A stretch of DNA of 60,450 nt, the filler included, from Hausera hauseri (Eukaryota), in NCBI GenBank assembly GCA_046269625.1. It is 11 parts of 11 records of this genome, joined end to end, with 100 filler letters (N's around TTAATTAATTAA, not from the genome) between each part and the next. Parts side by side here need not be neighbours in the genome. Positions count along the whole stretch, not along the records: positions 24,324 to 28,403 come from JBJURY010774425.1; 10 more parts are not named here. One strand, given 5' to 3'. Below the pieces are notes generated by a model. That model had not been told where the DNA came from. It did not search any database and was given only the letters and a program-made list of their open reading frames with translations. Below, one piece after another: positions 3,234 to 46,620 of the stretch (positions within the stretch are counted from its first letter, which is position 1; every line of letters begins with the position of its first letter). The position numbers and the translations under genes are program-made.

Positions 3234-4931
3234 ATGGAGATTATACAAATTTTATTGATAACATCATTGCTGATGCCAAAAGCCGTAGGTATAGTGGCGT
3301 ATAATTGCTCTAAACCCAGTGAGGGACAAAAGTATTCTCTAGATGACTTAGAAAAATGCATAAATGCTGATCCAGAACAGTTAATAACTACTAGTGGCCT
3401 TACATATTGGGTGTACCAAGAGTCCGAATTCATAAAAACAAAAATTAGGGAATGTTACGTGAAAAGATCGTTCTTTCTATTTTATTGTAACTACTATTCG
3501 GGAAATTCGGCCATAATTGAGCCTACAACGCCTTTTGAGCCCATAATAATATCTCGAGCAGAGTGTCAAGATGCTTTTAAGATTGGCATTATAACTATAC
3601 AAAATGCACACATACCGGCAGTGAGGAATAGAATAAAGTACAAAGGGATTTTCAGAGCGAGAAGGATAGACAAAACAATGGAAGGAACCTGTAAAGGAGT
3701 GGATTATGATGTCGGAGGTACCATTGCGCCTAGAACAGTAGCCATAGAAGATTATCAGGTACAACTGGAAGAATATGAAGGATTATTTGATTCTCAGACA
3801 AAGTTAATGACAACTTTGAGTGACTGCGAATACGACAATGGTGAATGTGATACAGGAGAGTCAAAAATGACATGGGAGACTCTAGCAAGTAAATGCCAAT
3901 TGACACTGTTAAAGGAAGGCAAGTTTAACAAGACAGTGGGAAAGACAGGGGAAAAAGAAACGGCGATGTATAAAGAAGGAACAAAGGAAGTCAAGATGAC
4001 AGAAGTAGCTACAATTGTATACTCAGGAAATCCCGAAGGAATGATGAGATTTAAAGTTACGGGCGTGACAAATAAGTGTGGAGAAGAAATATCCAAGACC
4101 AATTATAAAGGTATCTTCATATCGAGAAAAGAAATACCCGGAGCGAAAACGAAAATAGAAAAAAAGGATATCAAGTTGACCCAATATTTCGATAACAAGA
4201 TCGATTTTCTGATTAATTACATAAGAAAGGAAATTAGGGATTTATATCGGGAGATTATAATGAACGAATGCAAGCTGAACTATGAAATAATGCGTAATAA
4301 AATGGCATTGGTGATAACAAACCCGGATATGATAACGCCAATACTACCCTTCGGTGATGGAGTTATTGGAAGAGTGATGGGAGAGGTTTTGATAACAATA
4401 GAATGTAAGAAGGTAAAAGTAGCAATCAGACCCACGAAAGAATGCACAATGGACCTACCTGTCGTTTACCAATCAGAAGCACGGTATGTTACGCCAGTGA
4501 CAAGAATACTTCTCGATGTTAACATAAAACCCACTTCACTCTACAATTGTACTTTTAATATGTCACCAATGTTCAAAATTGATAATGATAAATGGATAAG
4601 GATGCCGAAAAGAGAACCAGTGTCGAAACCGGAGACATTAAGTTTGATTAACTTACAAAGGAATCATAAGTTCGAGTCATTAACAGGAATATCACAGGAA
4701 GGAATTTATACCCAACAAAATTTGGAAGATTATAGACGGATGTTGTTATTTCCACAGCAAGGACAGCCAGTAATAACCGAATTAACGCGGAGAGTAATGT
4801 GGGACGGTGAAGGGTCCCCACAGTGGAAAAACCTGATGGGCAAGGACTATCAAAAGAAAGTAACACAAAACGTGATGGGAAAAATGTGGGGAAGGTTCCT
4901 ATATTACGGAATACAGCTTTTGGGTTTCTAG
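3234..4931 (+). CDS. env: Chuvirus (Jingchuvirales)-like envelope glycoprotein; TM region disrupted
   Basis: Signal peptide MEIIQILLITSLLMPKAVG followed by IVAYNC. Cys-rich ectodomain. Block YFDNKIDFL..LY....ECKL..GEVL...C..V.V.IR...C..DLPV....YVTPVTRIL resembles chuviral G/EVE proteins. Open to 4931. Confidence 0.8.
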   Translation: MEIIQILLITSLLMPKAVGIVAYNCSKPSEGQKYSLDDLEKCINADPEQLITTSGLTYWVYQESEFIKTKIRECYVKRSFFLFYCNYYSGNSAIIEPTTPFEPIIISRAECQDAFKIGIITIQNAHIPAVRNRIKYKGIFRARRIDKTMEGTCKGVDYDVGGTIAPRTVAIEDYQVQLEEYEGLFDSQTKLMTTLSDCEYDNGECDTGESKMTWETLASKCQLTLLKEGKFNKTVGKTGEKETAMYKEGTKEVKMTEVATIVYSGNPEGMMRFKVTGVTNKCGEEISKTNYKGIFISRKEIPGAKTKIEKKDIKLTQYFDNKIDFLINYIRKEIRDLYREIIMNECKLNYEIMRNKMALVITNPDMITPILPFGDGVIGRVMGEVLITIECKKVKVAIRPTKECTMDLPVVYQSEARYVTPVTRILLDVNIKPTSLYNCTFNMSPMFKIDNDKWIRMPKREPVSKPETLSLINLQRNHKFESLTGISQEGIYTQQNLEDYRRMLLFPQQGQPVITELTRRVMWDGEGSPQWKNLMGKDYQKKVTQNVMGKMWGRFLYYGIQLLGF

Positions 4932-4937
4932 CTATAT

Positions 4938-5101
4938 AGTAGGGGGAAAATGGCGGTTCTGGCCCACGCCGGGGGGGGTGTAATCGATAAATCGATTTCG
5001 CACATGTGCCGATCGATGGTGCACACTGTGCCTTATCGATCCATAAAGTGCCTAGCAACGGTGCCGCTAGGCACTGTTGCTAAGGGCACTTTTGCACTTT
5101 T
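4938..5101 (+). mobile_element. Maverick/Polinton-type terminal inverted repeat inserted at the end of env
   Basis: Starts AGTAGGGGGAAAATGGCGG. Homologous to the reverse complement of 20665-20828. AG-start termini are typical of Polintons. Confidence 0.6.
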
Positions 5102-19304: not shown

Positions 19305-20194
19305 GTATGGATCTGATAGATGAAACTATCAGTATCCATATACATCAGCTGCATGGACTTGAACTTGGGGACCATGATGTCGTAGTGGAAATAATACATA
19401 AGGGTCTTTGACAGGTCGAGGATTGCCATACCCACATATATGGGCTTGTTGAATACCAGGGATGTTTTCAGCATATGGATGCTGACCAAGTTCTCAGCAT
19501 ATATAATGCTACTGTGAAAGTTGGGCTTGGCAATAAGCTTTTTTGCCCGCTTCCAGTCACATACTAGCTTGATGTTGATCCTGTTGCGGATATTCTACAT
19601 GGTCTTGCCAAAAACGCTGTTATTATATAGTTTGAATTAGGCTTTCTCTAAGTCGTTCTTGGCATTAGTTCGCAGCTTCGTATTGAGATCTATGTATGAC
19701 TGCAGCCACATGAACTGGTTGAGCTGCAGGGCTCTATGGATCTTGGTAAAAAGAAGTCCATGTCTAACAGCTTGCTGGAGATTGATGTAATAGACTACAT
19801 ACCTCTCCCTATTACCCACATAACATAGCAGCTTTCTCTGCTTTCCATGGGACGGAGGCCTGCTCTCAGGGAGGAAAGGCAGCTGTTGATGCCTTGTGTG
19901 GATAAAAGCCGGATATTTCACATCCACATTCAGTATGTAGCCCGTATCTCCAGTGGGATTCAGGTCCAATATAGGGATGTTTTCAAGATTTTCGACTCAT
20001 TTGAAGTTATCATATGGCAATGGGGTGCTCATTGCACATCCATACAAGTTGTTGGCATCCAGGTATGATATATGAGTATTCCTTGGATGGATAATACTTG
20101 GCCATATACTTGTTGTTGGCCACGTTATACCGGTGAATGGCCTGGCATATTCCGCCTTTAGTGCCTCTCTCAATTATAAGGATCATATCGTAAT
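19305..20194 (-). pseudogene. Maverick protein-primed DNA polymerase B, C-terminal part
   Basis: GGICQA, YLDANNLYG.AM, LPFLPE, KLYNNSVFGKTM, PIYVGMAILDLSK, YMDTDSF. Confidence 0.9.
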
Positions 20195-20315
20195 TGTGAG
20201 GAGAAATTTAAACGAATATTAATGTTTAAATTCAATTCAAAGTTAAATCAATAAACAGCCAATATAAAGTCAGGAAATTCAAAAAAGGATGGTAGAAACG
20301 CGATCCACTAACAGT
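20195..20315 (+). repeat. TG-starting terminal repeat shared with 44296-44530
   Basis: TGTGAGGAGAAATTTAA...GTAGAAACGCGATC. Carries a ~115-bp deletion relative to the 44296 copy. Confidence 0.8.
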
Positions 20316-20319
20316 GTCC

Positions 20320-20828
20320 ATTCAATTTAACATTGATTTTTGATACCTTAGTGTAGAAAAACCTATGGGCATTCTCCACCACCTGACCTTCGAATAGATA
20401 TTATTCGAAAATAACCCAACAGATTTAAATTCTAATTGCACATTCGTATAGAGAATCTTTTTTCACATTGAATACACCCGGTTACATGCGCTAATCAACA
20501 ATATTGGAATTATTGGAAATCCGATATTATTGATTTACACACACTTGCACATGTGCAGTGCACATGCACAGTGCAGAGATCGATGCATCTTGATGAGCAC
20601 TATCAATCAATGCTTTGTGCTAATCGATTTGATCAATACTGTAATGTGCAACGATCGATTTGTGGAATGTGTAAAAGTGTGCATAGCAATGATGCCTAAT
20701 GGCACCGTCGCCATGAATGTGTTGATGGATAGTGCACCGGGTGTATTATCGATTATCACATGTGCCGTATATGTTTATCGTTTACCCTTCCTCCGGGGGT
20801 GAAACAAAACCGTCATTTTCCTCCTACT
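20320..20828 (-). mobile_element. Maverick-type terminal repeat (~500 bp)
   Basis: Ends ...TTTTCCTCCTACT. Homologous to 4938-5101 and to 25480-25850. Confidence 0.65.
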
Positions 20829-20829
20829 G

Positions 20830-21605
20830 GCCACATTTACCAATGTTGATGGCAAAGAATAAATTAGGGCATTCAAGAATAAATATAGGCCGATATTGGA
20901 AACCACCAATATTTCAGAATGGCTGCATAAAGAACAGGCAAAGCTGATCCATGAAGCTGAGGACAGCCAAAACAAGAAGAGTGGATGGACTCTGGCAACC
21001 ATAAAGAGATGTGTTTTTCACAAGTACTATTATATGCAGGGCAGCTCCTATATACAGCTTCCTGAATGGATCGCTAAGAAATCATGCATCAATGGCTTTA
21101 ATGATGATGTAATGTGTTTCAAATACTACATTCTATGAAAACTCATACCGGATAAAATCATACATATCGAGTTTGGCTATATAATGACCTACAGCACAAT
21201 GTATTACGTTCTCACCATCCTTAGATGAAGTCAAAAAATTTGGGCGACTCAACAATATATCTATCAAAATCTTTGGATTGGAGAAAGATAAATTCTATCC
21301 GCTACAAATGTGCGATACTGAATTGGAAGATCATAGGGATCTGCTCCTGGTAGACGATGGCAGAAAGAAACATTTCGTTTGGATCTAAAACTTTGAGCGT
21401 CTAGTAAAATTTCAAATAACAACAAATCATGGAAGAATTGAATTCTGTAAAAGATGTTTGTCCCATTTTGGTGGCGATGTACCTATTGAGAAGCTGAATG
21501 AGCACACGATGTACTGCAACGACAATTATTGTATCAGAACTGAATTTTCCAAGGAGGTTTATACAGAATTCAAAGGATTTGTAAAGAAACTTAAGGTTCC
21601 AATAA
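20830..21605 (+). pseudogene. Maverick pPolB N-terminal region
   Basis: SGWTL, GSSYIQLPEWI..K..IN..NDD..CF.Y, DLLL....HFVWI, FCKRCLSHF. Frameshifted. Confidence 0.85.
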
Positions 21606-23920
21606 ACGGTGGCTGGATGATATGAATCATGAAAACAAAGTTTTTCGACGTCCGTTTGTGGAGCTATGTGAATTATTCTTAACAGTATATGTCAGAATTA
21701 TGTAAACTGATTTCAAACGAAAAAGGGGAACCAATCGTCGGACGAAGAAGCTATAATATGGTTTAAAACGACGTTTATGAGGAAGGTGAACCCTATCGAT
21801 GAAGTAATCGAATTGGCCGACATGTGTCAGAAAGAAAGAGAAGACTTTTTGACATTAGAAATCAGGGGGCGCCATGCAATGGACAAAGTTTTTGAGTTGA
21901 ACGAAGGAGAATTTGTTCAAGAAGTTCTGAGAAAACGGATAAGCTTAAAAGTGCAAAGAGAACAGTTTGTTTTCAAACCCAAAAATGATGATGGAAGAGA
22001 TGAGGAAACAGGTAAAAATTTAGGAAGATAGCCAAACTGTAGAACAGTAAAGAGAAGTGGCTCCAGTGAAGAAATCCTTCGGGGTGTAGTAAAGGCTCCC
22101 AATAGAAATTTCGAAAAAACAACATAGGTGAAACCCAAAGAATATGAGAGAAAACCGTTCATACGTAACAGTGTAACAGAATATCCAAAAAATAAAGGTT
22201 TGAAAAAAGATCGATGAACAACAACATTACTCAGGTTAAGAAACCACCTTTCCGTGTGATCACAGAGAAGAGAGGACAGGCTACAACGCACTCTGCCTAT
22301 CATGATGCCAGTAAGTTCTACTGCTGCGAAAAATTGTTACAATCGCCGAAAGCTAAAGTGCTATCTAAGGATGATTGTTATTGCCGTTAAAAACATGGAC
22401 ACATTAGAAGAAAGTGCCCTTTAAACAACATATGTTTAATATGTGGAAAAGTGGACACGGAATTAGAAACTGTTTCAAATTACGACAGGTAAATCCGATG
22501 TATGTGGAAGAAATGTATGAAGACCATGGGGTGAAATTGCACACTACGAAGACGACATGTAGAAAACTTGAAATACCAGAAACTCTGCTGTAAGCATTAC
22601 GTCAGTGGAGTTGGCGTAAACAATTTACAAAATCGAGATGCAGCAATGGTAGTGGGGAAAGACGGACGGTGATGGAGTAAAGTAAAGTTGAACAAGTGTA
22701 GAATAGAAATTTTGTTGGATAGTGTAGCAGTACTCTGCCAACAAATAGGAAATGAAGAAAAGGTAGTAGAGTATGCATCTAAAACACTCTCATCTTTTGA
22801 GAGTTACAAGAAAGGAACTGTTGGCATTACAGGAGTTTATGTTGCATTTTAAACAATATGTGTATGGTAAGCACTTCATGTCTAGAACTCATCATAAAGC
22901 GTTGTAATATATAAAAACCGCCACAAAACCAGTAACACCGCAATTCCAGACGTGGCTTAAAAACATGGCAGATTTTAATTTTACACTATACTATAGGAAG
23001 GGTGAACAGCAGGAAAATGCAGATGGATTATCGCGATTTTATGAAGATATATGTGCTCAGTGCCAAACAAGACGCGCTAATCCGAAAAAGGGCGCGTGTA
23101 AAGCATATTGATTTATTTTTGGTCATGTCAACCTTTCAATGGATAAAAGACGAGTAAGAAAAATGTACAGAAATACAACAAGTAAAACGTCGATTAGACG
23201 GCTCAATAGTGCAAAACGTACAAATTACGAAGGGAATTCTCAGTATAATCGATAAATTGGAAATGACGGACGGTTTCCTGGTATATAAAGATCTGAACCA
23301 CAGATTACCAGTTGTTCCAAAAATATGCGTAAAGATTTCATCCGGAAGATACATGTGGATTTATGCCATCTGGTTATGAGGAAGACAAAACGTATATTCA
23401 GCATCACTTCGCAGGCCCGGGTTTATCAAAAGAAGTAAATTTCATTGGAAATTGTGAAGAATGCTTATGTCCGAAAATCTCAAGAAAAAAGACAAAAGAA
23501 AAGTTCATTCCTATTAATGGTGATAATTTTCTGGACCAATTGGTAATGTATGTTGAGTAAATTGGAGAAAAAATAGAATGTATTTGTATATTTTGATTAT
23601 TATTGATCAACTTTCGAAATTGGTGAGTTTAACAAAAATACGGACGCCGAAGTGAAATGGACTCACAGAATTGGAAAGCCGAAGTGAATCTTGATTGATA
23701 ACGGAAGCAAATTTGGAGTTTTGCAAAGAATAGGGAATTAAACAAATATTCAGCAGTCCGATTCAACATCAATCTAACGGTTTGGCAGAAAGGGTCATCC
23801 GGACTGTTTGGGATATGCAGGTAACAAGTGCAGCAGGAACGTTGCGTACAGCATGCTGGAAATCACTACCGAAATTGGAATTTTCGATAAATGCCACGAG
23901 TAGTTGTAAAATGACTGGAT
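21606..23920 (+). mobile_element. Highly decayed Gypsy element (gag remnants, RNase H, integrase)
   Basis: VVEYASKTL, KELLAL, YRKGEQQENADGLSR, SP.QHQSNGLAERVIRTV. Confidence 0.8.
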
Positions 23921-24323
23921 GGGGCCGGCCCTTCATTTTTTTAAAAAATTTTCATTCGTTCGCCACCGTTTACTCATGAAATTTTTTTAAATTTTGAAAA
24001 ACCGACCCCATTCAGTCATTTTACAACTACTGTCAACACTTCAATTATATGTGAATGGGAAACTCGATTGAAGAAATTTAAAGTGTATATTAATTGTTAA
24101 CATAATTTGAATATTATAAAAATGGCGTTTCAGTTAAATGAAAGCAAACAAAAAAATCAAAATAAAATTGATGAAATTTAAATTATATATTAATTATTAA
24201 GATAATTTAAATTTTATAAAAAGNNNNNNNNNNNNNNNNNNNNNNNNNNNNNNNNNNNNNNNNNNNNTTAATTAATTAANNNNNNNNNNNNNNNNNNNNN
24301 NNNNNNNNNNNNNNNNNNNNNNN

Positions 24324-24695
24324 TTCTCCAGTGGAAAATGCCGAATAATGGGATATAAGAAGCCCATTGATCCGTGTAGTTTGCCCTACAATATATCAAT
24401 TGTGGGAATACAATCAGTTACAGTTACATGCGATTTTTGCAAGCCAATAGATCTAAATACATTGGCTCAGAAAAATCCAAGGTGTCTCTATGAGCCAAAA
24501 TTATTTCCGGCACTAAGATTAACTTCTTATAATCCCCTATGCGTAAATGTGTTTCATACGGGTAAAACTGTTATTACCCGTTTAAAGGATTTAAATTATA
24601 ATGATTTTGTTAGTTATGTTCTAGATAATATATTATTATCGACTTATGACTCTTCAAAAAGTAACACGTATACAAAAACAACTATAATAACATAA
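24324..24695 (+). CDS. Divergent TATA-binding-protein-like protein (5'-truncated by scaffold start)
   Basis: Frame open from 24324: FSSGKCRIMG (end of repeat 1), then CD....IDLNTLA....CLYEPKLFPAL.......VNVFHTGKTVIT, compared with TBP YEPELFPGL..LIFVSGKVVLTG. Confidence 0.8.
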   Translation, partial: FSSGKCRIMGYKKPIDPCSLPYNISIVGIQSVTVTCDFCKPIDLNTLAQKNPRCLYEPKLFPALRLTSYNPLCVNVFHTGKTVITRLKDLNYNDFVSYVLDNILLSTYDSSKSNTYTKTTIIT

Positions 24696-24708
24696 AAACA
24701 ATAACAAG

Positions 24709-24957
24709 CTATACCAACTGTACATGATCAATCTTGTACATCACCTTACTCTTCCTCTTCTTCAATAATATTGATTTTAATTTCGTCTTCACCACATTCA
24801 CTGTGTCGACAATATTCGCAGCAGTCCTCAATTCAGTATCTTCAATCTGATTAGCTGCATCAAATTGAATACATGTATATTCTGCAACATTTTCAAAATA
24901 CTCATCAGCCTGTTTGCTCATATCAGTTATTGGTTTATTGTCCATTATGTAGGTCAT
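24709..24957 (-). CDS. Small hypothetical protein convergent with the TBP-like gene
   Basis: 82-aa ATG-initiated ORF ending 13 nt from the TBP-like stop. Basic C-terminus (KKRKSK). Confidence 0.4.
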   Translation of the reverse strand: MTYIMDNKPITDMSKQADEYFENVAEYTCIQFDAANQIEDTELRTAANIVDTVNVVKTKLKSILLKKRKSKVMYKIDHVQLV

Positions 24958-25479
24958 GTTCTATACTTAGCAATAGTTTATACACCAAATTTTAATGCGC
25001 TTTTGTTTTAATGCATCAATTAAAGTCAATATATGGCGACGCCAAATTTAATGTTCTCAACCATGGGGAATCGAATGGTGTCATTAGATTCTTCGAATAA
25101 TGCATGCTTGACCGAGTTTTCGAGTTCGAGTAGCTAAGTATTCGACTTGTAAGCTCGAATTCAAGTATCTCATGCCATATTCCGATTCGGCATACATGAC
25201 TTCCTATCGCGCCCCGCTTATAGATTTATCGATTTCCGCTTCACTGGGCTTTAAATGCACATTTTGCTTAATTCGAAATATTGATTTTGTACCTATATAT
25301 CACATTTTCATTGAATAACTTTAATGCATAAGAGGGTATTCGGACATGGCAAATCGATTGCCGTTGTTAGATTTTTCGAAACGTTCGATATTTGAGCCAA
25401 AAAGTTTTCGAATTTCGAATATTCGACTCGATATTCGAGATATCCATACTCGAGTTCCTATCTGTCCCCGCTAAATGTT

Positions 25480-25850
25480 ATATCAAATTTTGACTCCTTA
25501 GGACCTAAAAATACTATGGGAAGTCTGCGCCAGTTGCACTTTGGATCGATATTATTCAAAATCCACTCGATCGATTTAAAATTTAATTGCACATTCACAT
25601 AGTGCACCGTATTTCCAATCGATTGCATCCAGTCACATGTGCTAATCATCAATATTGGAAGTACCGGAAAACCGATATTATTGATTTTTGAACACTTAGA
25701 CATGTGCTCCGCATCTGCACAGTGCATAACAAGATGCATCTCTACATGTTCTATCCATTAGCACTTGCCAGACCGATTCCATCAATCCTAGATCGTACAG
25801 CTACCAAAATGTGAAACGTGTAAAAGTGCCATGGCAACAGTGCCCAAGGG
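25480..25850 (-). mobile_element. Maverick-type subterminal repeat (outermost ~120 bp missing)
   Basis: Aligns with 20335-20705, e.g. ATATTGGAA..CCGATATTATTGATTT and GTGTAAAAGTG. Confidence 0.65.
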
Positions 25851-26701
25851 TGTTTGACGTCTAAACGGGAATGGAAAGAAGTTTTTACACCAGTAGAAGC
25901 CATTGATAAACTAGTTAGTCAATTTCGTGAAAATTCGCCACATATTTGGCAATCAAATTCCGCCATCAATTTTGATAATATGTACATGAAAGTTAAATTA
26001 TTCCAATTTGTTGATTTGCATTATTTGAATGCCAAAAAATATTGTTTTGAAAGTAACAAAAGTTGGATATCCGAGATTTATCGGTGGATATTTATGGATT
26101 TCTCAGTCTCGTTGATTTGAATCATCCATGTGCCATTTCCAAACATTTGATTGTTTATGAATCATCACCGATATTATTAATATTATAAACTTGGTCTTCG
26201 TAAAGGCATCAACGTTTTGATTTGTTTTAATATTCAATAAACTTTTTCGACTTTAAAATTGTAAACTTTTTCTAGCCATATTTGATGTAGAAATGTTTTG
26301 ATGTATACTCGTGATTATCAAATTGGAATTTTCTCAGTTTTGATTTTTACCTAAACGACATTGAAACTTTACAATTACAATTTCAATTTCTATGCGACTT
26401 TTGGTTTCTTCTCCGGATTTACAACCCTTTTTTATGATGATGGAAAATTTGGTGACTGAATACAGAACAAAGAAGAGACACCTGTCTACTCAAAGAAACT
26501 AATAAAGTGACTCCTGCATTTTGCTTCGTCAGTAGCATATCCACCCAACAATGGTGTTAGAAAATATACCAGTTTATTTCGTGCCGCACTGACAAAGATT
26601 TTTTCACGAAGGTAACATTTTTTTTCCATTGCAAATTTTAAACAATTGATCTGCACGTTAGACGGTCTTTACAAAACCATTGTTTTATAATTGCATGTAC
26701 A

Positions 26702-27290
26702 ATGAGTAAAGCTACAAAAAACGACGATAATCTTTTTTCCATTGCTGTTTTAATCGATGAGTTAAGAAACGATGATAGTCAAACGCAATTAATAAGTATT
26801 AAAAAGCTTCCTACTGTTGCGTTGGTCCTTGAAATGGAAATGCCAGGACAGAGTACGATTGAAGCAGACCCAGAATCGACTGGATCTATTGAGTCATTCA
26901 GTAATAAGTCGATATCTACACTGTTAAGTGAGAACAAAAATGAACCACAAATGTTGTATTCGTTATGATCTAATAGAGCTGCGGTCGAATCATTTAGTTT
27001 TGGTGCAACATCCGGACATACTGGAAACACAATATTGACACAAATGTCTCCTGAAGTTATTGAACATGAAGTAAAGACTTGGCTGGTCAGTCGGTCGCAA
27101 TCATCTGAATTTCACGAGTACAAGTCATTTATAAGACCCATTTCCCATTATCAAACATTAATGTTATTGTTGCCAATCAAAAAGGAAACATTCCGATTAA
27201 ACAATGCAAAAATGCTACTAAATATCCTGGCGCGCATGTTCTCGATGATTCTGCGTGGGTTTAACGTAGCCGCAGTGGCACCATCAAGAA
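26702..27290 (+). pseudogene. PPP2R1: PP2A scaffold (A/PR65) subunit fragment
   Basis: [34 protein letters not shown] compared with [34 protein letters not shown]. Disrupted afterwards. Confidence 0.8.
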
Positions 27291-27459
27291 AAGTTCAAAT
27301 GTCAAGTGAATGTAACCAAATAAATTCCAAAACATAATTTTCATTAGAAGAGGAATTAAACAATTTCAGAATTCAGCTTTTGGTTTTATTGAAAACGAAC
27401 GTAAACCATAGAATAATCTGGTAAAAGCGTGCAAACAATTCCCCATTGAGAATCGGAAA

Positions 27460-27830
27460 TTGGAATATTTTGAAATTTCCGATAAGTACGGGCCCATCGT
27501 TAAAAATTACACCACAAAATTACGGAATGTAGTCACAAGTGTCAGCAGTGAGGAGGTAAAGGTGTTGCTTATTGGACAATACAATGTCGGTAAATCAACG
27601 ATCATCAAAGCCATGCTTAGTAACAGATTGGTCACCGTGTACAATGGGACGACAACCAGTTGCTTCGTTGGTATTCAGCAGTCTCAGAAACTGGAAGTGT
27701 TACGGCAATGAGGAGGAAGTGTTCAACAAAGTGGGAGGGAGTGAATTGGAATTTATTAGAATGCAAAGGAATCGTAATATTTGCCCAGGTATGTTTGTAT
27801 TTATGAATCAATGTGACAAATTGACGGCGA
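27460..27830 (+). pseudogene. Dynamin-superfamily (mitofusin-like) GTPase fragment
   Basis: P-loop KVLLIGQYNVGKSTIIKAML...GTTTSCF and later G4-like FVFMNQCDKL. Internal deletion and frameshift. Confidence 0.65.
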
Positions 27831-29002
27831 CGACGACAAGTATGATTATTGTTATTTTCCGAAACATGTTTCGTCACCAAGTCACATGGTACATCAACAC
27901 TGTCCGATTTAATGCTGAATGGATTCAATGAATACAACGAAAGGAGCTTGTTCGTTGACCGACACATGTCACCGAAGTCATAATGTTTTATCCGAATCGA
28001 CTTTCAGAATGTTGAGCTCTTCATCATTCTTATTATTCCATTCGTCATTTTCCAAGAACATTTTCAGCAGGTATTATGCCATTCTCTATTCGATAATTTG
28101 GTTGAAATTCGCGCAAAAATCTGGATGATTTAATAATGTATTGTTTGTGAATCTGTGAACGTCACTTATTAAACATAAAACAATTCCACTTTCTTTTTCA
28201 ATCGGATTTGGTAACGTTTGATTCAACATGAGAGCTGAAAAATATTTGTACAAAACGGAATATCGAACGCCACTTGAACTTGTGGATGCATTTTCTTTAT
28301 TGTAATAATTTGCAATATTGTTGTATACGTCACCAAACCGAACAGACTGATTATGGGACTCTTTAACGAATGATTTCAGAACATCATGTATAAATAGATT
28401 AGGNNNNNNNNNNNNNNNNNNNNNNNNNNNNNNNNNNNNNNNNNNNNTTAATTAATTAANNNNNNNNNNNNNNNNNNNNNNNNNNNNNNNNNNNNNNNNN
28501 NNNAAGTTGTCATATTTCAATTTATAGTATTTATAACTTAATATAAAACATTTATTTTATTTTGTTTTCCATTCAGAAGTGTACTAATTATCCAATGTAC
28601 TGCGTCTCGCACATACATGCGGAGCAGAAGCAGTGCCATCAGCAGATGGCTAAATATTAAACCGTTGGCACGGACTCATATTTGTGCCAAACGCGCGGTA
28701 GTATTTCGGCCCCTTGTCAATTTCCCGACTTTTATGCGATGCACATACATCAACTTGGCCCGTTTACGCGTGCAAAGGTGATAGTTGTGCATTGTCCCAC
28801 ATACCCGCGATACGGTAGTAGTAGAGTTCATGACGTTGATGGTTGCCAGTGTAATTTAGTACTATGGCGCCACAACGGTGCACGGTAAACAGGCCTACGT
28901 TTGTCCCGGTTGTTCAATAGTTGATAAAATCAACTATGAACAATTTTATAACCAGCACAAGGACCACTTGAACCAGTTTCAGCAGTCCAAAAAGGAAATA
29001 GT

Positions 29003-30630
29003 GATGGCGACAAGAAAAACCAGTATCCCCTCAACAAGCATGAAACGTCAGGCCTCAAGAAGTCTTGACGAATGCATCCGAAACAGTACCGAACAGCAGC
29101 TGATGAAACAGCAGGAACCTTCCATTACTGTCAAGTACGATCTAAACAAATCGTACGTGGACTTGAAAGTAAACATGTCGGGTACAACAACACTACAGCT
29201 GAGACATGTTCCGTCCGGTGTGCACAGCCGGTTGGAATTAGAGGTGGAGAAATTCAAACGCAACAACTGCAAGGTGCAATATTATGCACTTGCAGAATTT
29301 GAAAACGTTGTAGGTGGCAGGAAACAATGTATCTGTCACATCGAGCCGTACCGTATTCGGAAGATTTTATTGCCGATGTAGGCGAAAAGTTGGATGAGAC
29401 AATAGCCAACTATACCGAAAAGGGTAGTGGATGGCGAATTGTACGAATTGTCACACTCGGCTTTATCGTAACAAAGTCAAGTGACGTGGTATATTTGTTT
29501 GGCCGGTCATTTATGCCGACATCATCTCTAAAGCAGTCTGTGGCGTTAGTGAATGTACAAAATACTGACAACGAATACTGTTTTTTGTACAGTATTTTGG
29601 CTGTATTGAAGTACAGCAAAGTGAACAGATATGTAAATCGGCAGTATTTTTCCGAATTGCAATTTGATGCATGTACATAACTTATCGCAGTCGGAACCAG
29701 AATGGATGCTAGGTAAATTTGTTGCTGTTGGAACAGGCCGAGAAATTTCATTACGTGGCAGTGACAAATCTGGATAGACTGCTGAACATGGAACATGACC
29801 AGTTTATCAGAAAGCGAATACGATGCAAATGGTTTTCTGTGTCTGCATGGATTTAGGTCAAAAACATGGGAGAAGCACGTGACACTGCAAGCAGCATTCA
29901 ACGGGAACAACCATGTGCGTCATGCCACTCAAGGGGCCCCGATTCAGTGACTGGTCGAAAACGGAGAGTCCGGCATATGTCGTATATGCCGATATTGAGG
30001 CAATTCTACCACTGCGCATGTATGATCAAAAACACGTTCTAATCGCCGTTGGTATGTTGGTTGTCCCAATAAAAGTGGTCGGTCAGTCGCAGTATTACGC
30101 CTTTCACGGCTGGAACTGTACGTGATTTCCTGCAGCAGTTGAAAATTATAGCCAAAACTGAAATCGCACCCTGGTACAATAGAAGTAGCAATAACCCTTG
30201 ATGTGGACGGGTGAAGATGAACGCCTGACGTTTGCAGTCACAGATGAATTGTACCTGTGCCGCACTGGAACGGCTCGTACCGGATCACGATCATTTTACT
30301 GGTCGATATTTCGGAGCAGCATGTAATTCATGCAATTTGGCAAGGCGTGTGCGGCCATTCTTACTGGTGGTATTTCATAACTTCAGGGGTTATGATTGTC
30401 ACCATGTACTGAAATGGGCCATTAATAGATTTCCCCACTGGGAACTGTCAGTAATCCCAACAAAAATAGAGAAATACCTGTCTCTGTCGGCACGTATAAA
30501 CCGGTTCCAGGTACGCTTCCTTGACTCATTGTAATTTCTTAATGGGTCTCTAGCAAAACTCGTAAATGTCTTGCCGGATGTGCCGATAACATTGACGCAA
30601 TTTCCTACATTGCGTTTAGCAAAGGCTGGT
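29003..30630 (+). pseudogene. Maverick pPolB N-terminal/exonuclease region with endonuclease VII-like motif
   Basis: EKGSGW, NVQNTDNEYCFLYSIL, YVVYADIEA, DHDHFTGRYFGAACNSCNL, VVFHNFRGYD, RFLDS. Confidence 0.9.
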
Positions 30631-30769
30631 AAAACAACATTGCTGTTTCGTTGAACTTTAAGCCCATGTTTAATTGACTTAAAGTATTACCGAGTTTTGC
30701 AACATTTTCACTCGATAGCTGCTTTACACGATAACTGTATATTCAACAACACCGGATTATTTAAAGAAA

Positions 30770-31300
30770 TCTGTACGGGCATTTGCAGATAATGCATTTC
30801 ATACTTTCCAAAACGTTGCGTCGGTAAAAATGTCGGTGTTTGATGCATGGGCTTTAATTTTCGTTTCTGTATTCCATTAGTCATTCGCACTTGTTTTAAT
30901 TTAGGCATTTCTAATTGTTGGACAGGTTCTATTTTCGGTTCCAGACTGTTGACATTAGAATTGTTGCCACCAAGCACTCGTGACAAATCGGAACACTCAT
31001 CATCATCACCATTGAGTATTATCGCTCTATCTTCATCTGACATGCGTTTACCACCAATAGTTCTCCCTTGCCGTTTTAATATCCGTTTTACTAATTGTTG
31101 GGCAGGGTTCGGTTCCAGGCATTTGACATTGTTATTCTTGTCAACCAATTTGTACTTTCGTCATTGTCAGAATTATTATTGAGCAGAATCGTTTTATCGT
31201 TGTTTTTCATCGTAGTAATGTCTGAGCGAATGAGAATGATATTTATAGTCCATTGGCCAGAGTATATTACTTTGATTCAGTAAAACACTTATGTGGTGTT
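30770..31300 (-). pseudogene. Opposite-strand Maverick accessory ORF region replacing the pPolB C-terminus
   Basis: ORF 30708-31148 lies on the minus strand between the truncated pPolB and the ATPase. Confidence 0.35.
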
Positions 31301-31762
31301 TAATTTGATTAATAGTCGTCTCTTAGTTTATTGACCGAATCCCCAATACGACAATTATTCCACTGCTAAACACTGACAAAGCGGGCGAAAGTGTTAGTCG
31401 CAGTGCAGGAAACAGTTCGCGCTCAAGTACATTCGGTAACCATTGCTAATTTGTACAGATTAATTGATGGTGGTGGGGGTGGTGAGCAATTTAACTGAGT
31501 CGTTGCCGTTATTAATTGAATTTGGTCATGACAATTCCGAATGGTAGATGTCTATAATTTGTGATTGGTTTGCGACAACTCATAATACGACAATTTCCCG
31601 ATGGAAATATGATGCATGTAATATTCGGTGGACATTTGTGGACATACTGCCTCGACTTCCATTGATTAAACGGCAGTGTATTAATACACTCAGTAACATG
31701 TCCGTGGTAGTTAATATTGGCTATTCATGCTGCACCTATTTGTGTTTGTGATTATAAGCAAA

Positions 31763-32390
31763 ATGTATGAGAAATGCATTAGCAACGACATGAAGCTGCA
31801 TAATAGTGCCATTCTCCAGATTGTAGACCCCAGTGGAAGTGGCAAAACGCATTTTGTTTGCAAATTGCTGCAGAACTACCGTGACATTCCAGTCACCGCT
31901 GTTCAATCACATTTACTGTCCTCAGGGCAGTGGTGATGATGGAGAGTCCGGTTTGACACATCGGGAATTTTGTAAACTGAAATCGATAACGATAATTGAT
32001 GGGTTTGATGAGAACTGGTCTGAGCGATTACGCAACGGTGACGTTATTGTCATTGACGATTTATTTCAAGAGGCAACGAAACAAACCTGTTCACGAAGAT
32101 TGCACGCCACCACGGTGTGACGGTTATTTTCATTACGCAAAACATGTTCCATCAGGGCGGACAGCATTGAACATGAAATCTTAACGTATACTATTAGCTG
32201 TTCAAAAATACCCGTGATCAGACTTTCATTTATTATGTTACACGACAAGCCTTTCCTCACAATTGAGCCTACTTGTTAGATGCGTGTTATGATGCCACCA
32301 ACAAGGCGCATGGATATCTGTTTATTGACATTACACAACAGTATCCCAATGACATGCGTGTACGAACAGACATTTTCAATCAGAAAGGTG
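31763..32390 (+). pseudogene. Maverick packaging ATPase (A32/FtsK-like)
   Basis: Walker A-like IVDPSGSGKTHF, Walker B VIVIDDL, YDAT...HGYLFID. Confidence 0.9.
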
Positions 32391-32627
32391 TGTCTAAACA
32401 AATTCGAAATCGACATAATTATGATAAAAATGAAAATTTTCCGAAAAACGATTGTTAAACGTAAACCTACCAAGCGGATGTCCGGCAAGAAACGTGTCAA
32501 AACGAACCACTACGGTCAAGCGATGGATTTTGTGCTTCGAACAACAGCAGCAGCAACTAGACGCAAATTACCGTCAGTGGCAACGGTTATAAACAACTAC
32601 GTCTCATCAGCATCAATACGTCCAAAA

Positions 32628-32937
32628 ATGCGATTTAAACGTAGTCAGCCGTACTTTATTGCTTTGCTCAAGGCACCTACAAGACATGCGAAACAAGCTA
32701 CGATCATTCCCGCAATTTGTAGTAGACGATTTGATGGAAATTTTGTACAATATTGTTGTGGGTCACGTTGACATTGGTAGTGGAAAGCGGAATTTACTAA
32801 AGTATCGAAAACGACTCATGGGCCTTGCCAACGCTCGTAGTAAACGACTGAAACGATAGGTCATGTACCAGCAAGACGGAGGATTTCTTGGTGCAATTCT
32901 GTCGATTGTCACGTCAGTACTGCTGCAGCATAGTATA
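32628..32937 (+). pseudogene. Maverick small virion protein with QxGGFL motif
   Basis: EILYNIV.GHV....L.KY+..L..LA followed by QQDGGFLGAIL. Confidence 0.6.
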
Positions 32938-33039
32938 AATAATGACAGTATGTTGTGATTTTTGATATGGGTGCATGGTTTTCATCTTTCTGCCCCAGTT
33001 TACCGAATCTTTCATTTATGTTTCGTTCAAATTGTTGTA

Positions 33040-34100
33040 ATGCAAGCAAAACCGGCACCATTGACAACACCAACGGCAACGATGGGTGCCGTGTGGTTCG
33101 ATGCGCGTCATCCCGTCGGGTATAGTAGCGTCAACAATCTGACAAAGACTGTCAAACAGACTCGGCAACAGACCCAACGTTGGCTCGGGAAGCAGTTAGC
33201 ATACAGCCTAAACAAACCGATATGAAGGTGGTTTAAAACTCGTGCATACCGTTCTGCCGCTGTAAAGAACGTATGGCAAATGGATCTGAGGGAAATGATT
33301 CTGTACGGCAGCATCAATGATGGGTATCGGTACGTGCTGACATGTATTGATGTGTTTAGTCGTTTTGCACGTTCAATTGCCGTGAAATCTAAATCCGGTA
33401 AAGAGATTGCCGTCGCTATCTAGACACATACAACAACAACCGAAGCAATTACAAACTGATTCGGGTAAGAAATTCTACAACGCCCACGTAGCAGCGGTCT
33501 TGAAACGGTTCGGTGTAAACCACTACTCCGTGTTTTCCAAATACCAGGCTGCACTCGTTGAACGATTTAATCGAACATTGCGCGGTCGCCTAAACAAATT
33601 CTTTACGAAGCAAGGCAACAAGCGCTGAGTACATGTACTGTCGGTATTATTAATTCATATAATCATTCGACATATCGTGGCATCAATGGATTACGGCCGC
33701 TTGACGTAATCGATGATTTGGACACGCGGCTTTATCAAAACCGAACACAACGACAGGCAATTAAATGCCAAAAGTATAAAATCGATACTTACGTTCGTAT
33801 TTCAAAAATAAGTACGACGCCATTCATTAAGAATTTCAGTCAGAACCGGAGCGACGAGGTTTTCTGCATTTCGGCAATCAACACAAAACAAGCACCTGTA
33901 ATGTAAGTTTTAGAGGATGAAAGTGGTGGGGAAATACGCGGTAATTCTATGAACAGGAACTGCAGGTACTGCCCGAAAAACCCGATGTATATCGTATTCA
34001 GGAAATTCTACGTTCACGTGCCAAAGGTTCGAATAAACATCTCGTCAAGTGGCACGGTTACACTGCACCGAGTTGGATTTTTGCATCACAGATTCAATGA
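33040..34100 (+). pseudogene. Maverick retroviral-like integrase with C-terminal chromodomain-like region
   Basis: WQMDL, YVLTCIDVFSRFA, LQTDSGKKFYN, AALVERFNRTL, LVKWHGY...SW. Confidence 0.92.
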
Positions 34101-35105
34101 GCAGCAGCAGCATTTTCTTGGTACTTTATAATAACAGATCATAATAATGATAATACCATTAAACAGTTTACCATGCACTTGGATTAACCGGTCGATTTAC
34201 GCCAGGGAGCTTGGGAAGTGGCTTTGACGTAATTCACATTTACATTTTCACCAATGACAATACGTCAGAAACGTACCCGATTTCAAGTCGTTTGCGAACA
34301 ATCTGACGCAATAAACGATATATTTTTTGCAATTATTCGCGAGAAAATTTCTCGGTTTATGCTTATTTTTTAAACTACCGTATGAATCTAATGCATCGAA
34401 ATCCCATTGAAATGCAGTTTAATTATATAGCTGATGCTCAGGCATGGGGTTTTCAATCAGTCAATATACACTCAGAATGTCTACGGCTAGGTGGACGTTA
34501 TAATTGGTGAAAAATTGGACCTTTCATCCAATGCGGAATCCGACATAGTAAAGTGGACTAAGTCAGAATCAGTCTTCCTCTTATATATTACACCACACGA
34601 TTTATTAATGGAAACGAAACTGGAATTGTGTGAACACGTCAAGAAAACGGCTACATTTGCTGTAAAGACATGTGAAATAAACGCAGATGGTCATATTTCG
34701 ATTATACTACATGACAATGTTACATATTTTGTCTTTGATGAATTATTGCCTCGGAATTTGGGTTTTTAAAACGCGAATTCTATCAAAACATTGTTGAACG
34801 ATCTATTGTTGCCAAATACAAACCACAACTCTGGAGCATTTCATGGAATCAACCTTTTAACGAACTTAACCGAATCCACACTCGTTGGTGGAGAACGTAA
34901 ATAACTACCGGCTTCTATCGAACTGGATTCTGACACGTACAAAACATCGGGTGAAACTTTTTGCGTTAATATGCTCAGACCCATGTACTTATCACTGTCT
35001 CAATATTGTGCACAGTATTTCCGTGTATATGCTTGATAAATTTTGGGAACCCATTAGATTTCTGGGTCAACGACACATTTGACGTTACATTTTCGACGTC
35101 GTCGT
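34097..35105 (+). pseudogene. Maverick minor capsid (penton-like) paralog 1
   Basis: Starts at an ATGA overlap with the integrase stop. DNTI..FTMHL..PVDL..GAWEVAL at the N-terminus and ISVYMLD.F.EPIRF at the C-terminus. Confidence 0.6.
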
Positions 35106-35162
35106 TAATAAACAAACTGCTTCATCACTATCATCATCATCATTATCATCATCATCGAGTTC

Positions 35163-36150
35163 ATGAGTATTTACATGGTGTTGCCGAACAACAGGTGTCC
35201 GACCACTCGTTCGAACAATTCAGCCAGTGAATACGTTGCAGATCGGATCAATCCTTTGGATTTATCTGGAAAATGGGAGGTTGCCCTGACGGAATTAACT
35301 TTCCTTACGTACCAGTGACATTGAAAGGTAGTATGAAAATAACGTACAACAAGACTGTTACTGAAACCAAAACATTCTTGTCCTCTGACACTTATTTACA
35401 ATAAAATAACAGTTGGAGAATCGGGCATTTGCACGACGGAAACAAATTACGGTTCACACGGCAAAATCGTTTTCTTATTTTAGAACAAATCTTACATTTT
35501 ATGGCAGATTTTGAATTTACCGTTACCTTTGAATCCTATGAGATGGCACTGAAATTTGTATTCAAAAATACAGAGTACAAAGGTAAACATTAAAAGTGAA
35601 TATATAGTTGGTCAAAGATTAATTACCAGACAACGGTGAAATTTACCTACACAGCCCAAAGGTGTCAACATCATATGTATCGATTGGAGACAATGTCTAT
35701 TGCGAATCTGTAACACATCTCTGTCAACACGTTTTTTCAAATGAAAAGTAGAGTCAAACTTGAACTGGCTAAGGATATTGTCGATATATCATTGGACAAA
35801 GCTTTAGCCATGGTATTGGGTTTGAAAAACCGCGGTTTGAGGCATCGACGGCGGCTGCGGTGGCGGCACATGTTACAACCCTTAAACCCAAACTGAAAAC
35901 TAGTCTAAGTCAAATATACATTTACGTGAACGTCACCGAACCTATTTTGGTGGGTGGAGTACGTGTACCGCTACTCCGTGCAATTTATCCGGAAAGCAGC
36001 AAGTATACTGCTAACGACAATGTCACTGTCAAGCTCGATAATCCAATGTACCTACCTGTGACAAATACATCTATAAACAATGTTGAAGTGAATATCCGAT
36101 GTGACGCGAGCTTCCTTATTGAATTTCCGTACAGTAACACAACCTAGTTC
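35163..36150 (+). pseudogene. Maverick minor capsid (penton-like) paralog 2
   Basis: YMVLPNN....NNSASEY....PLDLSGKWEVALTELTF ... IYIYVNVTEPILVG..VPLLR....PMYLPV....INNVEVNIR. Confidence 0.8.
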
Positions 36151-36184
36151 TTCATTTCCGTCGAATCCAACAACAACAACAACA

Positions 36185-36543
36185 CTATTGATTCTCAAGT
36201 TGTATCCATTTACAGTACACTTCATCAGGGCGGTGAACCGCCGTATTTCGTCGGCAAACAGTACGGTTCTGAATGGTTGTGTACATTGGCACGTTTAGCA
36301 TTTCCGGTGTTGAAGCGTATTGGAGCCGTGGCATCAAAAACGGCACAGAATGTGTTGTATGAAAACAAGCCGATTCTACCATCGTTGAAGGAACACGCCT
36401 TGTCAGGAATAAAAAGCGCTACACCGGGAGTCGTTCAATCATTCAAAAAACAAGTTGCTGGCAGTGGCTTGAGAAAACGCCGTAGAGCATCATCGAGCTC
36501 ATCAACTATAAACAAACGTCGTCGTTGTACGATTTTCAATTGA
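36185..36543 (+). pseudogene. Maverick basic core protein (pX/pVII-like)
   Basis: QYGS....TLARLAFPVLKRIG ... GSGLRKRRR, located directly before the MCP. Confidence 0.6.
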
Positions 36544-36550
36544 CAGACAA

Positions 36551-36722
36551 ATGGCATCTGCAAAATCTGAATTGTGTATATTTGACAAAGGCTCACCACA
36601 AGTTGTTATTGACAATGCGGCATTTGAAGAAATCTACCTCGTTAGTTCGGTTTCAACGGACGATAACATTGACATTCAATTCAACATTATGGCATCGGAC
36701 AATGAATACCTGGATTTGAACG
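36551..36722 (+). CDS. Maverick major capsid protein N-terminus (truncated by scaffold end)
   Basis: AKSELCIF....PQVVI.....EIY..SS......IQFNI....EYLDLN matches the Polinton MCP start (KSELDLF..P.TQ). Confidence 0.85.
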
Positions 36723-44290: not shown

Positions 44291-44295
44291 GTGTT

Positions 44296-46620
44296 TATGA
44301 GGAGAAATTTAAGCGAATAATAATGTTTAAATTCAATTCAAAGTTAAATCAATGAACAAACAATATAAAGTCAGGAAATTCAAAAAGGGATAAAAAGAAG
44401 AATCATTTAATGAGTGAAGGAGATAATTGTTATACAAAACTTTTATAATAAATTTCTTATGCAGAATTCAATCTTACAATCATCGAATGACGTTGAGGTC
44501 GGAATAGTAGAAACGCGATCTACTGACAATTTTAATACCACATATATCACCCTTAAAATAATGTACTTTGTCTATTAAAATGTTAACCATATGCAACAGC
44601 TCCCTACTGAGCCCGAATACTCTTGAATTTAATTCCCAGAATAATTTATCTCCAGTTAATTTTCCTCTCACTATTAATTTATTTAAGTTTACAATTAGCT
44701 TATTTCGGTGGGTACATATTATCATTCTTGTGGTGTATTGATCTTTAAATTGGTTCCCTAATACCTTCATTTTAACCCTTTCGAATATACACGCAATTCC
44801 CCCACAACACAGTCCACACCAGCATTCGGGGAATCGAATTCACGAACACACTCTTTAACATTCTTATTAAACTTAATCTTACTAAAATCAACGTCATACC
44901 TCTCATAGAAACAACGGAGACAATGCCAATATTTCACGTAAAACTTGTAAACCCAAAATTCTAATCGTTTCAATTCATAGGGTAAAAACTGACGATTGAT
45001 TAGAGTCTGATTAGCAGCACCACTGTTAATATTGTCCATGAAAATGAACTCTAAACAGGGAAATTCCCTTGTTTAATGAGATTTCGATAATGTTACAATA
45101 AGAGCAGATTTTATTACATTCTTCATTCTGATAATATAGTTTCGCAGATCGTAGCATAGAACGAGAAAATTTCGATGTAGATTTACTTTTACATGCAGTA
45201 TTGGTTGTATGTTAAATGGGACTTCAAAAATGTAATTTGACTTCGAAAACAACTCAGACCCGTGTGTAATAAAACAGTTTCGACATTTAATAATTGGTTT
45301 CATCATTCTATTCTTCCTTATAATCGTCAACTGCATTCGGTCTTTAGTATTATACATTATATCATACGAAACTGGTGGTGGAAAACAGGGTAGACAATTC
45401 GACTCCGTCCGAAGTCTTACAACTATTGTATTTAACGTTAAATCTTTGATTGGGTTCATTTTGTCCAATCTTGAATTTTTCCCAGTTACCATCACGTCTC
45501 CAACTTCAATTTCATCAAGCATGTCATAAACCAGAATTCTACTTTGCATTCTGCAGTGGTTTGATAATATTTCTTCTCGATCTAATTCCTCATCGTACGT
45601 CTTTTCATTTTATTCTTTATTCTCTAAACCTGACAAATACTAGTGAACAACAATTTCCTAGATTGAATTCCAAATCCACGATAATATTCAACGATAGTTT
45701 TTTGAATTTAAAATTTCAATCTTTATTTATTATCGAAATATTTTACATTTGTATCCCGTGGTTTACATTTAACATCTAATATGAATTAATAGATATTGAT
45801 ATGTAGTCTTAAATATTGCTTTTGATTACTTCATACGGATGACCCACTTGATATTTGGATGAGACGCAAGTTCTGATGATTTCATTAATTGTTTATTAAC
45901 CTCAGAAAAAACAATATTATTTTGATATATCTTTGCGTTGGTTTTGCTACAACTTCTAAGAGCTATTGTGGAAGTTGCCTTTGAGTTATTTAGCAAATAT
46001 TTGGTCTGAAGATATACTGATTGGTTGAATGTCTTGCGTTGATGTCTCTATTAGTGCTGTTTTCCATTTTCCCGAATTATTTTTTAATTTTTCGAGAATT
46101 AGTCCGGTTTCGTTTTAGTAGCGGAGTAATTCTTGCACTATTATTAGACTCAATAAGTCTCTGTAATTTATCAATAGCATTTTGACACTTGTCGGTTAAT
46201 TTACCAACATCAAACGATTGCCTAACGTCTGCTCGAAAATCTCTGGCAGTCGATCGGTTGGGCTTCTTTTCAATTTCGCAATTAATAATTTTATGCTTGG
46301 TATGCTTGAAACGATCCTTTTTAGGACTATCGAAACTTGAACACTTACTAAGACTTGTTCTCGATATTGTAAGAGCTGACCTATTTTTTCCGAAATCATT
46401 TTCATGTTTTCTTAATGAAAATTTTGTTGATCTTATGTTATATTTATTAGATAATAATTGCGGTTTTTCGTAATTTTGATGGGTTAGATTTTGAACTTTA
46501 GAGTTATTATTACTATTAAAACAATTTGATATATTTAAATTTTTCTCTCCAGATAAATCTTTGCAGCATCAATTTGACCGTCCGAATAAATAGTCTCAGC
46601 TAATTTATCATAGTTCCTAA
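44296..46620 (-). mobile_element. Unclassified insertion with terminal repeat and tandem small ORFs (44480-44770, 44767-45039, 45073-45549) plus a degenerate longer ORF
   Basis: Lies between the mariner and tubulin fragments. The terminus is repeated at 20195. ORFs are compact and co-oriented. Confidence 0.45.

Follow-up and report, generated by a model that had tools for sequence, protein, structure and literature searches.

A contig-truncated and probably decaying minimal TBP gene of Maverick type in Hausera hauseri, and a candidate late-promoter role for its intact relatives

We describe a TBP-like gene of Hausera hauseri which we read, with moderate confidence, as a probably decaying copy of a minimal TBP gene borne by Mavericks, the intact protein of which would be the late-gene promoter factor of the element. 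Membership in a family of short TBPs, a predicted TBP fold, linkage of the family to Mavericks, repetition of the gene, and the position and strand of a short DNA motif, YATAAAC, are established. The value of the case lies in the family and in its testable promoter logic, not in the truncated copy.

Results

The TBP-like gene and its convergent neighbour

The window, meaning the whole stretch of 60,450 nucleotides that was analysed, consists of 11 contigs of 4-8 kb that were joined artificially with N44-TTAATTAATTAA-N44 spacers. One such spacer (24224..24323, unstranded) abuts and cuts the TBP-like gene; position 24324 is base 1 of a 4,080-nt contig (24324-28403). In frame +1 this contig is open for 123 codons from 24324, with the stop at 24693-24695, and Pfam, relatives and the tree identify this portion (24324..24695, plus strand) as the 3' part of a minimal TBP gene, covering family residues of about 39-147. 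The frame matches Pfam TBP with an E-value of 6e-14, scoring 52 bits where the cut-off is 22.9; among solved TBP sequences, 35 match it at E-values of 3.6e-6 or lower. It opens in the final strands of the first TBP repeat and includes the entire second repeat, and the FSSGK, LFP and VFHTGK motifs are all within it, so that the TBP-fold ORF with Phe motifs reported in an earlier note on this DNA is real. The contig edge cuts into the gene, so that of its about 147 codons the first 38 are lost and the 3' three quarters are left. The same note had called the ORF intronless, which holds for the portion present and does not extend to the 5' quarter that the contig end cuts off.

The copy in the window is truncated by its contig and, judging from its residues, probably decaying. 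It departs from the family consensus at 2 of the 25 columns that are conserved in at least 85% of 130 proteins, with residues seen in none of these 130 members; for scale, 22 of the 130 deviate at two or more of these columns. Both deviant codons contain places where most of the depth disagrees with the window (24498 and 24579), one of them in the stirrup predicted to touch TFIIB. The frame also extends about 13 codons beyond the stop of its best match. Within 24324-24660, the 20 places among those listed where most of the depth differs from the window fall on third, first and second codon positions 11, 5 and 4 times, respectively (binomial p 0.04; 15 further rows of the table lie outside this count).

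A convergent ORF of 82 aa (24709..24957, minus strand) lies in the same highly repeated stretch, and the two stops are separated by 13 nt, which bears out the tight convergence described before. No homologue was found for it in a word search covering lengths of 45-144 aa, and it has no Pfam match. It is probably a small late gene of the element.

A family of short TBPs

In a word-seeded search, 133 of 134 candidates passed an E-value of 0.001, mostly with lengths of 144-165 aa and with a best identity of 73%, while an exhaustive search returned 477 proteins at E-values of 0.001 or lower, the short forms ranking first. The typical family length is about 145 aa. Members with a source name are labelled TBP or hypothetical, or have a database flag alone. 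A scan of the IMG/VR collection of viral contigs returned no member of the family.

An AlphaFold2 model of member P0002, made with a 41-row alignment, has a pLDDT of 95 and a pTM of 0.84; against the PDB, all 44 entries among the matches listed (E-value of 0.001 or lower) are TBPs, with TM values of up to 0.79. In the first repeat of the model, strands S1, S3, S4 and S5 are present, there is no helix of four or more residues, and H1, S2 and H2 are missing. The family thus differs from the canonical architecture of two repeats of about 90 aa, each with H1 and H2: its first repeat is about 10 and about 13 residues shorter at the helices, from median landmark spacings in 112 proteins of 46 versus 56 and 47 versus 60 residues when compared with the yeast-like TBP of locus L072. 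An hhalign comparison likewise opens a gap of 14 residues at helix H2.

In a quick tree of 80 rows, both TBP copies of the window (the second is described below) fall within one 36-row clade of short TBPs with an SH-aLRT support of 95, while eukaryotic and archaeal-like TBPs are separated from it at 98, with P0190 and L078 in between; group labels in this tree come from motifs, and its rows do not include TRF2/TLF or named large-virus (NCLDV) sequences. The frame is therefore far from canonical TBP, as had been proposed, and it groups with the short TBPs and not with the eukaryotic TBP that a host gene would be expected to join.

Two longer members, in L019 (9986-10492, 169 aa) and L022 (2940-3434, 165 aa), apparently keep both N-lobe helices, as judged by length, and loss of these helices is thus not universal in the family. 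Both carry the changed DNA-face residues discussed below and are the earliest branches in the clade, so the changes in specificity may predate the loss of the helices.

Linkage to Maverick genes

The metagenome scan gave 80 loci, of which 25 (L001-L024 and L031) belong to the family; the other 55 hold ordinary or two-repeat TBPs and were excluded from the tallies. A Maverick core gene is present in 9 of the 12 family loci of at least 2.3 kb and in none of the 13 shorter ones. The ATPase is found in L002, L004, L014, L019 and L022 (with Pfam Pox_A32 on the first three), the integrase in L004, L014 and L019 (with rve and chromo domains in the last two), the protease in L009, L010 and L017, and the major capsid gene in L009, L014, L017 and L019. 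Locus L019 has pPolB on the same contig as its family TBP (Pfam 2e-21), while L020 is tallied solely through a putative minor capsid gene. A sequence-profile search for the major capsid protein gave no match; its assignment comes from a low-confidence model of the L014 protein (pLDDT 49), which matches the double jelly-roll capsids of mavirus, Sputnik, iridovirus and PBCV-1, the best being mavirus with an E-value of 2.6e-9 and a low TM of 0.27. Upstream of the major capsid gene, four loci have a conserved gene of 360-510 aa with no Pfam match, which is a putative minor capsid (penton) gene.

The window itself provides a second case of linkage. The contig next to the TBP-bearing one (28504-36722) is a decayed Maverick with remnants of pPolB, ATPase, integrase and capsid genes and a broken minimal TBP gene. 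The last of these (31281..31724, minus strand) has in-frame stops and a frame change and lies back to back with the remnant of the packaging ATPase (31793..32395, plus strand; 60-70% identity to the ATPases of L002, L004 and L014). The other remnants, all on the plus strand, are a broken protein-primed PolB (29749..30600), recognised by tblastn to the L019 PolB and the Pfam match of the latter; a broken RVE integrase (33058..34079), which matches related loci; and a stretch (35166..36721) covering remnants of the putative minor capsid gene, another small gene that is conserved, and the first part of the major capsid gene, the capsid fold being taken from the L014 homologue.

We therefore hold with high confidence that the TBP gene is of Maverick origin. 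That a Maverick-type element carries its own TBP, as the earlier note had inferred, is supported by relatives standing amid pPolB, ATPase, integrase, protease and capsid genes; the linkage comes from these related loci and from the copy at 31281-31724, as no Maverick core gene was found on the contig 24324-28403.

Beside the minimal TBP gene, 10 of the 25 family loci have a conserved gene of 100-250 aa (L002 2024-2389, L004 641-1015, L013 943-1713 and others). It gave no Pfam or PDB match; to our eye it resembles an OB-fold single-strand binding protein, which we take as a putative assignment.

A different arrangement was seen in L078 (281-2309), where a full two-repeat TBP of 172 aa lies between a PC4 co-activator gene and a 76-aa piece which, from similarity, we take to be the start of a Maverick integrase; Pfam gave no match for this piece. 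The locus represents a second kind of TBP-bearing element, and no plus-strand YATAAAC was found in it.

Terminal repeats and repetition

The stretch from 25488 to 25850 (363 nt, unstranded) begins 793 nt past the TBP stop and is the inner part of a terminal-repeat family, forming the right boundary of the repeated stretch. It is 70% identical over 367 nt to 20338-20702, which belongs to a fuller copy of the same terminal repeat with its AGTAG end (20338..20828, minus strand) on another contig, between two pPolB remnants. The outer end of the family, AGTAG...AAAATG, is also seen on a further contig (4938..5101, plus strand). AGTAG ends thus occur at 4938 and 20828, and no contig has both ends of one element. 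These AGTAG starts resemble the Maverick end motif (AGT)2 given in the available part of PMC8097293. As the copy beside the TBP gene is without the outer 126 nt that hold the AGTAG end, there is no actual terminus in that contig: the TIR-family repeat placed about 0.8 kb from the gene in the earlier note is found at that distance, whereas the terminus itself is missing. Because 25488-25850 holds a 93-aa ORF, we also considered that it might be a decayed gene. This was rejected, since the differences between copies are spread over the codon positions as 27, 23 and 18 (chi-square p 0.41), and codons with non-synonymous differences are more numerous than those with synonymous ones in each of the six frames; the repeat thus behaves as non-coding sequence.

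In the public run X1, 32,669 contig records fall on the contig 24324-28403. Over 24324-25819 their depth sums to between 3e4 and 4e5, dropping to about 1,100 in the bin that follows; from 25956 on, 17 of 18 bins stay between 10 and 204, with 26636-26771 as the exception. Summed depth is not copy number, and X1 is possibly close to the source of the window. A second public run, X2, has the same depth shape. Between the convergent ORF and the repeat, a subterminal stretch (24983..25487, unstranded) that is apparently non-coding reaches a summed contig depth of 1e5 to 4e5 in X1. The TBP gene, the small ORF and the repeat are clearly one highly repeated unit, and 24324-25850 is highly repeated in both runs, so that this is no single-copy gene; nor is the family, from the loci above, one that is never linked to Maverick genes.

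DNA-binding and regulator-binding surfaces

Residue numbers here are those of yeast TBP, with the yeast-like TBP of L072 as the sequence on which they were counted. The family keeps the equivalents of F116, F190, F207, N69, P191, E186 and E188. Three of the four DNA-intercalating phenylalanines are retained (128-130 of the 130 proteins), while the F99 column, which was placed by motif register, is Pro in 124 of 130; a loop Phe present in 109 of 130 might replace the one that is missing. Near-fixed changes were found from V71 to N, V122 to R, T124 to M, N159 to S, I194 to R and L205 to N, in columns which we take to be DNA-facing in TBP. The I194 column is Arg in 126 of 130 and the L205 column is Asn in all 130; the V203 column is Cys only with an ungapped reading of the strand, as hhalign moves it by one residue. 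According to the available part of PMC1636458, I194, V203 and L205 are the three positions behind the altered specificity of yeast TBPm3, and the first and last of these are thus near-fixed as R and N in the minimal TBPs.

The accessible text of PMC7221094 assigns TFIIB binding to two stirrup glutamates, and the binding of TFIIA, TAF1, Brf, Mot1 and NC2 to a basic patch mainly on N-lobe helix H2; in large-virus TBPs, by the same text, both signatures are absent. As read from its alignments, the minimal TBP family has mostly lost the N-lobe regulator signature and has kept the TFIIB glutamates: both C-lobe stirrup glutamates are retained in 128 of 130 proteins each, and the window copy deviates at one stirrup column.

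The 130 proteins were selected by motifs that overlap several of the counted columns, and the counts are inflated at columns within those motifs; the columns of I194, N159 and the glutamates lie outside them. The same invariants appear in A2, a 41-row alignment drawn from the higher-ranking hits with no filtering by motif.

The YATAAAC motif

The word TATAAAC occurs in 25 of 77 upstream stretches, compared with 1.4 on average over 200 shuffles. YATAAAC stands no more than 100 nt before the start in 17 of 22 genes of the packaging, capsid, protease, pX-like and PLA2-like classes, compared with 1 of 19 TBP genes (Fisher 3.6e-6), and before 3 of 3 integrases at the same distance. The loci on which the motif was counted are also those from which it was defined, and several are close kin (L009/L010 and L019/L022); as the tally covers TBP-bearing loci, a dependence of the motif on the minimal TBP is presumed. 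As a control, IMG/VR was queried with capsid, ATPase, integrase and PolB for Mavericks lacking a TBP, and nothing was found in that collection.

The motif is also strand-biased, with counts of 45 versus 5 for TATAAAC and 21 versus 1 for CATAAAC, in contrast to 31 versus 30 for TATAAAA and 17 versus 16 for AATAAAC. Three of the six minus-strand sites sit 32-37 nt ahead of minus-strand ORFs of 117-147 aa. Past the TBP stop, YATAAAC is present in 7 of 10 loci whose following gene runs in the same direction and in 0 of 6 whose following gene is convergent (one-sided p about 0.01), six loci with no next gene being set aside. In the window, a TATAAAC word (24976..24982, minus strand) begins 25 nt ahead of the convergent ORF's ATG and is a candidate late-promoter motif. 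The closest locus, L001, has the same arrangement, with the motif 32 nt before its convergent ORF. The decayed Maverick contig of the window has 4 plus-strand sites where 2.0 are expected, which we count against the motif reading.

An origin of the motif as a poly(A) signal or stop-codon artefact was mostly rejected: AATAAAC is unbiased, the motif is missing after TBP genes that face a convergent gene, and although 13 of the 66 sites overlap the stop of an upstream ORF, the other 53 are not stops of long ORFs.

As a separate observation, L016 (1618-1971) and L018 (1307-1843) contain related ORFs which, by eye, have a signal-peptide-like start and leucine-rich-repeat-like text, each behind a YATAAAC.

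Discussion

Proposed role and alternative explanations

We propose that the minimal TBP gene would be transcribed early by host TBP, and that its product would then bind YATAAAC by means of its altered DNA face, bringing in host TFIIB and Pol II via the two retained glutamates, so that the structural genes are switched on. Being without N-lobe H2, the protein may escape control by TAF1, TFIIA, Mot1, NC2 and Brf. The early step is thinly supported, since a canonical TATA box lies within 100 nt of only 5 of the 19 TBP genes. In its widest form the proposal is tentative, and we stop somewhat short of even confidence in it: a widespread Maverick lineage with a two-stage programme, in which host TBP gives way to an orthogonal TBP of 145 aa, which reads a private YATAAAC box and, with TFIIB and Pol II supplied by the host, turns on the genes for capsid, packaging and integrase; such a TBP would have shed the surfaces that host regulators bind. 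The earlier note supposed that the TBP serves to redirect host transcription; the evidence favours the element's own late genes over host genes as the probable target.

The protein might instead be a regulation-proof stand-in for host TBP with unchanged specificity, which would simply raise the supply of TBP, YATAAAC being a TATA box for either protein. The TATAAA core is still present in TATAAAC and might be read by host TBP; three of the four phenylalanines, N69 and the stirrup are kept; and loss of the N-lobe regulatory patch is general among viral TBPs, by the part of PMC7221094 that was accessible. This reading is nevertheless unlikely, as it sits poorly with the near-fixed polar changes on the DNA face, with a motif in which the final C is fixed and C is also tolerated at the first place, and with the avoidance of the motif by the TBP gene itself (1 of 19). 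The retention of the TFIIB-binding glutamates together with the loss of co-activator surfaces would equally suit a host shut-off or decoy protein that sequesters TFIIB or blocks host TATA boxes, which is nearer to the redirection of host transcription originally suggested. We regard such a decoy as improbable, because it leaves unexplained both the element-specific motif positioned as a promoter before structural genes and the strong conservation of the changed DNA face.

Virophages share promoter motifs with their giant viruses, and YATAAAC could by analogy serve a helper large DNA virus as its late promoter, the minimal TBP working with the polymerase of the helper. A helper would normally bring its own promoter factor, and the glutamate pair typical of contact with cellular TFIIB is kept here, whereas it has diverged in large-virus TBPs as far as the available text of PMC7221094 goes; we consider this explanation very improbable. 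There is hardly any room left for a host TBP paralogue or processed pseudogene of TRF/TLF type that merely lies near a repeat. It would fit the lack of a Maverick core gene on the contig 24324-28403 and the broken host gene fragment of PP2A-A 2 kb away, and it is already largely refuted by the 73% identity to short TBPs from metagenomes, their separate clade, the Maverick linkage, and repetition that is continuous with the terminal repeat.

Relation to known systems

The elements that carry the family resemble Mavericks/Polintons of the adintovirus type (PMC8502044; PMC4028283; PMC8097293), as the related loci share pPolB, an RVE integrase with chromodomain, an A32-like ATPase and a C5 protease, together with a double jelly-roll capsid and pX-like and PLA2-like genes. 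The published list of conserved Polinton genes does not include TBP, in agreement with the earlier statement that it is outside the standard Maverick core set. The accessible text of PMC8502044 (Starrett 2021) describes the adintovirus-like gene set as apparently restricted to animals, on which basis the host is probably an animal, and has a TBP label in one figure legend to which the accompanying text adds nothing. In the available parts of PMC11131425, PMC10748475, PMC11071308, PMC8097293, PMC4028283 and 10.1101/2024.03.25.586562, no TBP or TATA passage was found by term. In the literature searched we found no description of a minimal Maverick TBP family or of a YATAAAC late-promoter word, and the gene may be named in figures, bioRxiv supplements, GenBank feature tables or most subscription papers.

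Cellular TBP (PF00352) shares its saddle fold with the minimal TBP model and has a core of 179 aa, compared with about 145 aa here. The TBPs of large DNA viruses (Nucleocytoviricota and mirusviruses) are likewise without the eukaryotic N-lobe regulatory signature, according to the portion of PMC7221094 that was available; PMC10132985 describes TBP as a core gene of mirusviruses. The model has fold matches in BFVD, with identities of 10-19% at E-values of 0.001 or lower. By the same part of PMC7221094, large-virus TBPs are often paired with a viral TFIIB and their TFIIB glutamates have diverged, whereas the minimal TBP keeps both; no TFIIB gene was found among the 34 of 160 locus ORFs that were scanned. 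The TBP mimics of beta- and gammaherpesviruses (ORF24, BcRF1, UL87) offer a functional parallel, as in the part of that literature available to us a viral TBP fold reads a private TATA-like late-gene word with host Pol II, and the minimal TBP is proposed to work alike. These mimics are large proteins that act in a six-member viral complex and bind Pol II directly, unlike a stand-alone protein of 145 aa with a predicted use of TFIIB, and the fold match to BcRF1 is weak (TM 0.38).

A dedicated promoter factor with a matching DNA word would be a measurable handle on Maverick late genes, bearing on the timing of capsid genes and on the existence of a real viral cycle. If the proposal is true, these elements, whose viral life cycle is unproven, have a late switch made of one protein, and this protein is a natural, minimal and orthogonal TBP of altered specificity in which the TFIIB contact is kept and the regulatory helix dropped. 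The copy in the window, truncated and probably impaired, adds one more host genome in which the gene is present in many copies.

Other repeats and gene fragments in the window

Several further features were noted on the contigs of the window. A palindromic element of 133 bp (23899-24031) has AGTAGT...ACTACT ends and the word AAAATGAC, which it has in common with the larger termini; no 6-bp duplication was found in its flanks, and it looks like a miniature Maverick-derived element. A 97-bp repeat with 93% identity is present on two contigs, at 20194-20290 and at 44295-44391, the latter copy preceding three minus-strand ORFs (44480-45549) without Pfam matches. The PP2A fragment mentioned above (26702-26968, E-value 6e-9) comes from a broken gene for the scaffold (A) subunit, and both X1 and X2 show separate high repetition in the bin 26636-26771. 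In 19305-21700, two pPolB remnants on opposite strands lie on either side of the terminal repeat, which suggests nested or rearranged Maverick insertions. Finally, an ORF of 599 aa (3132-4931) matches the Pfam family Monjiviricetes_fusion with an E-value of 1e-72 over profile positions 3-549 of 653. It ends 6 nt before the repeat at 4938, and was probably shortened by the insertion of the terminal-repeat element.
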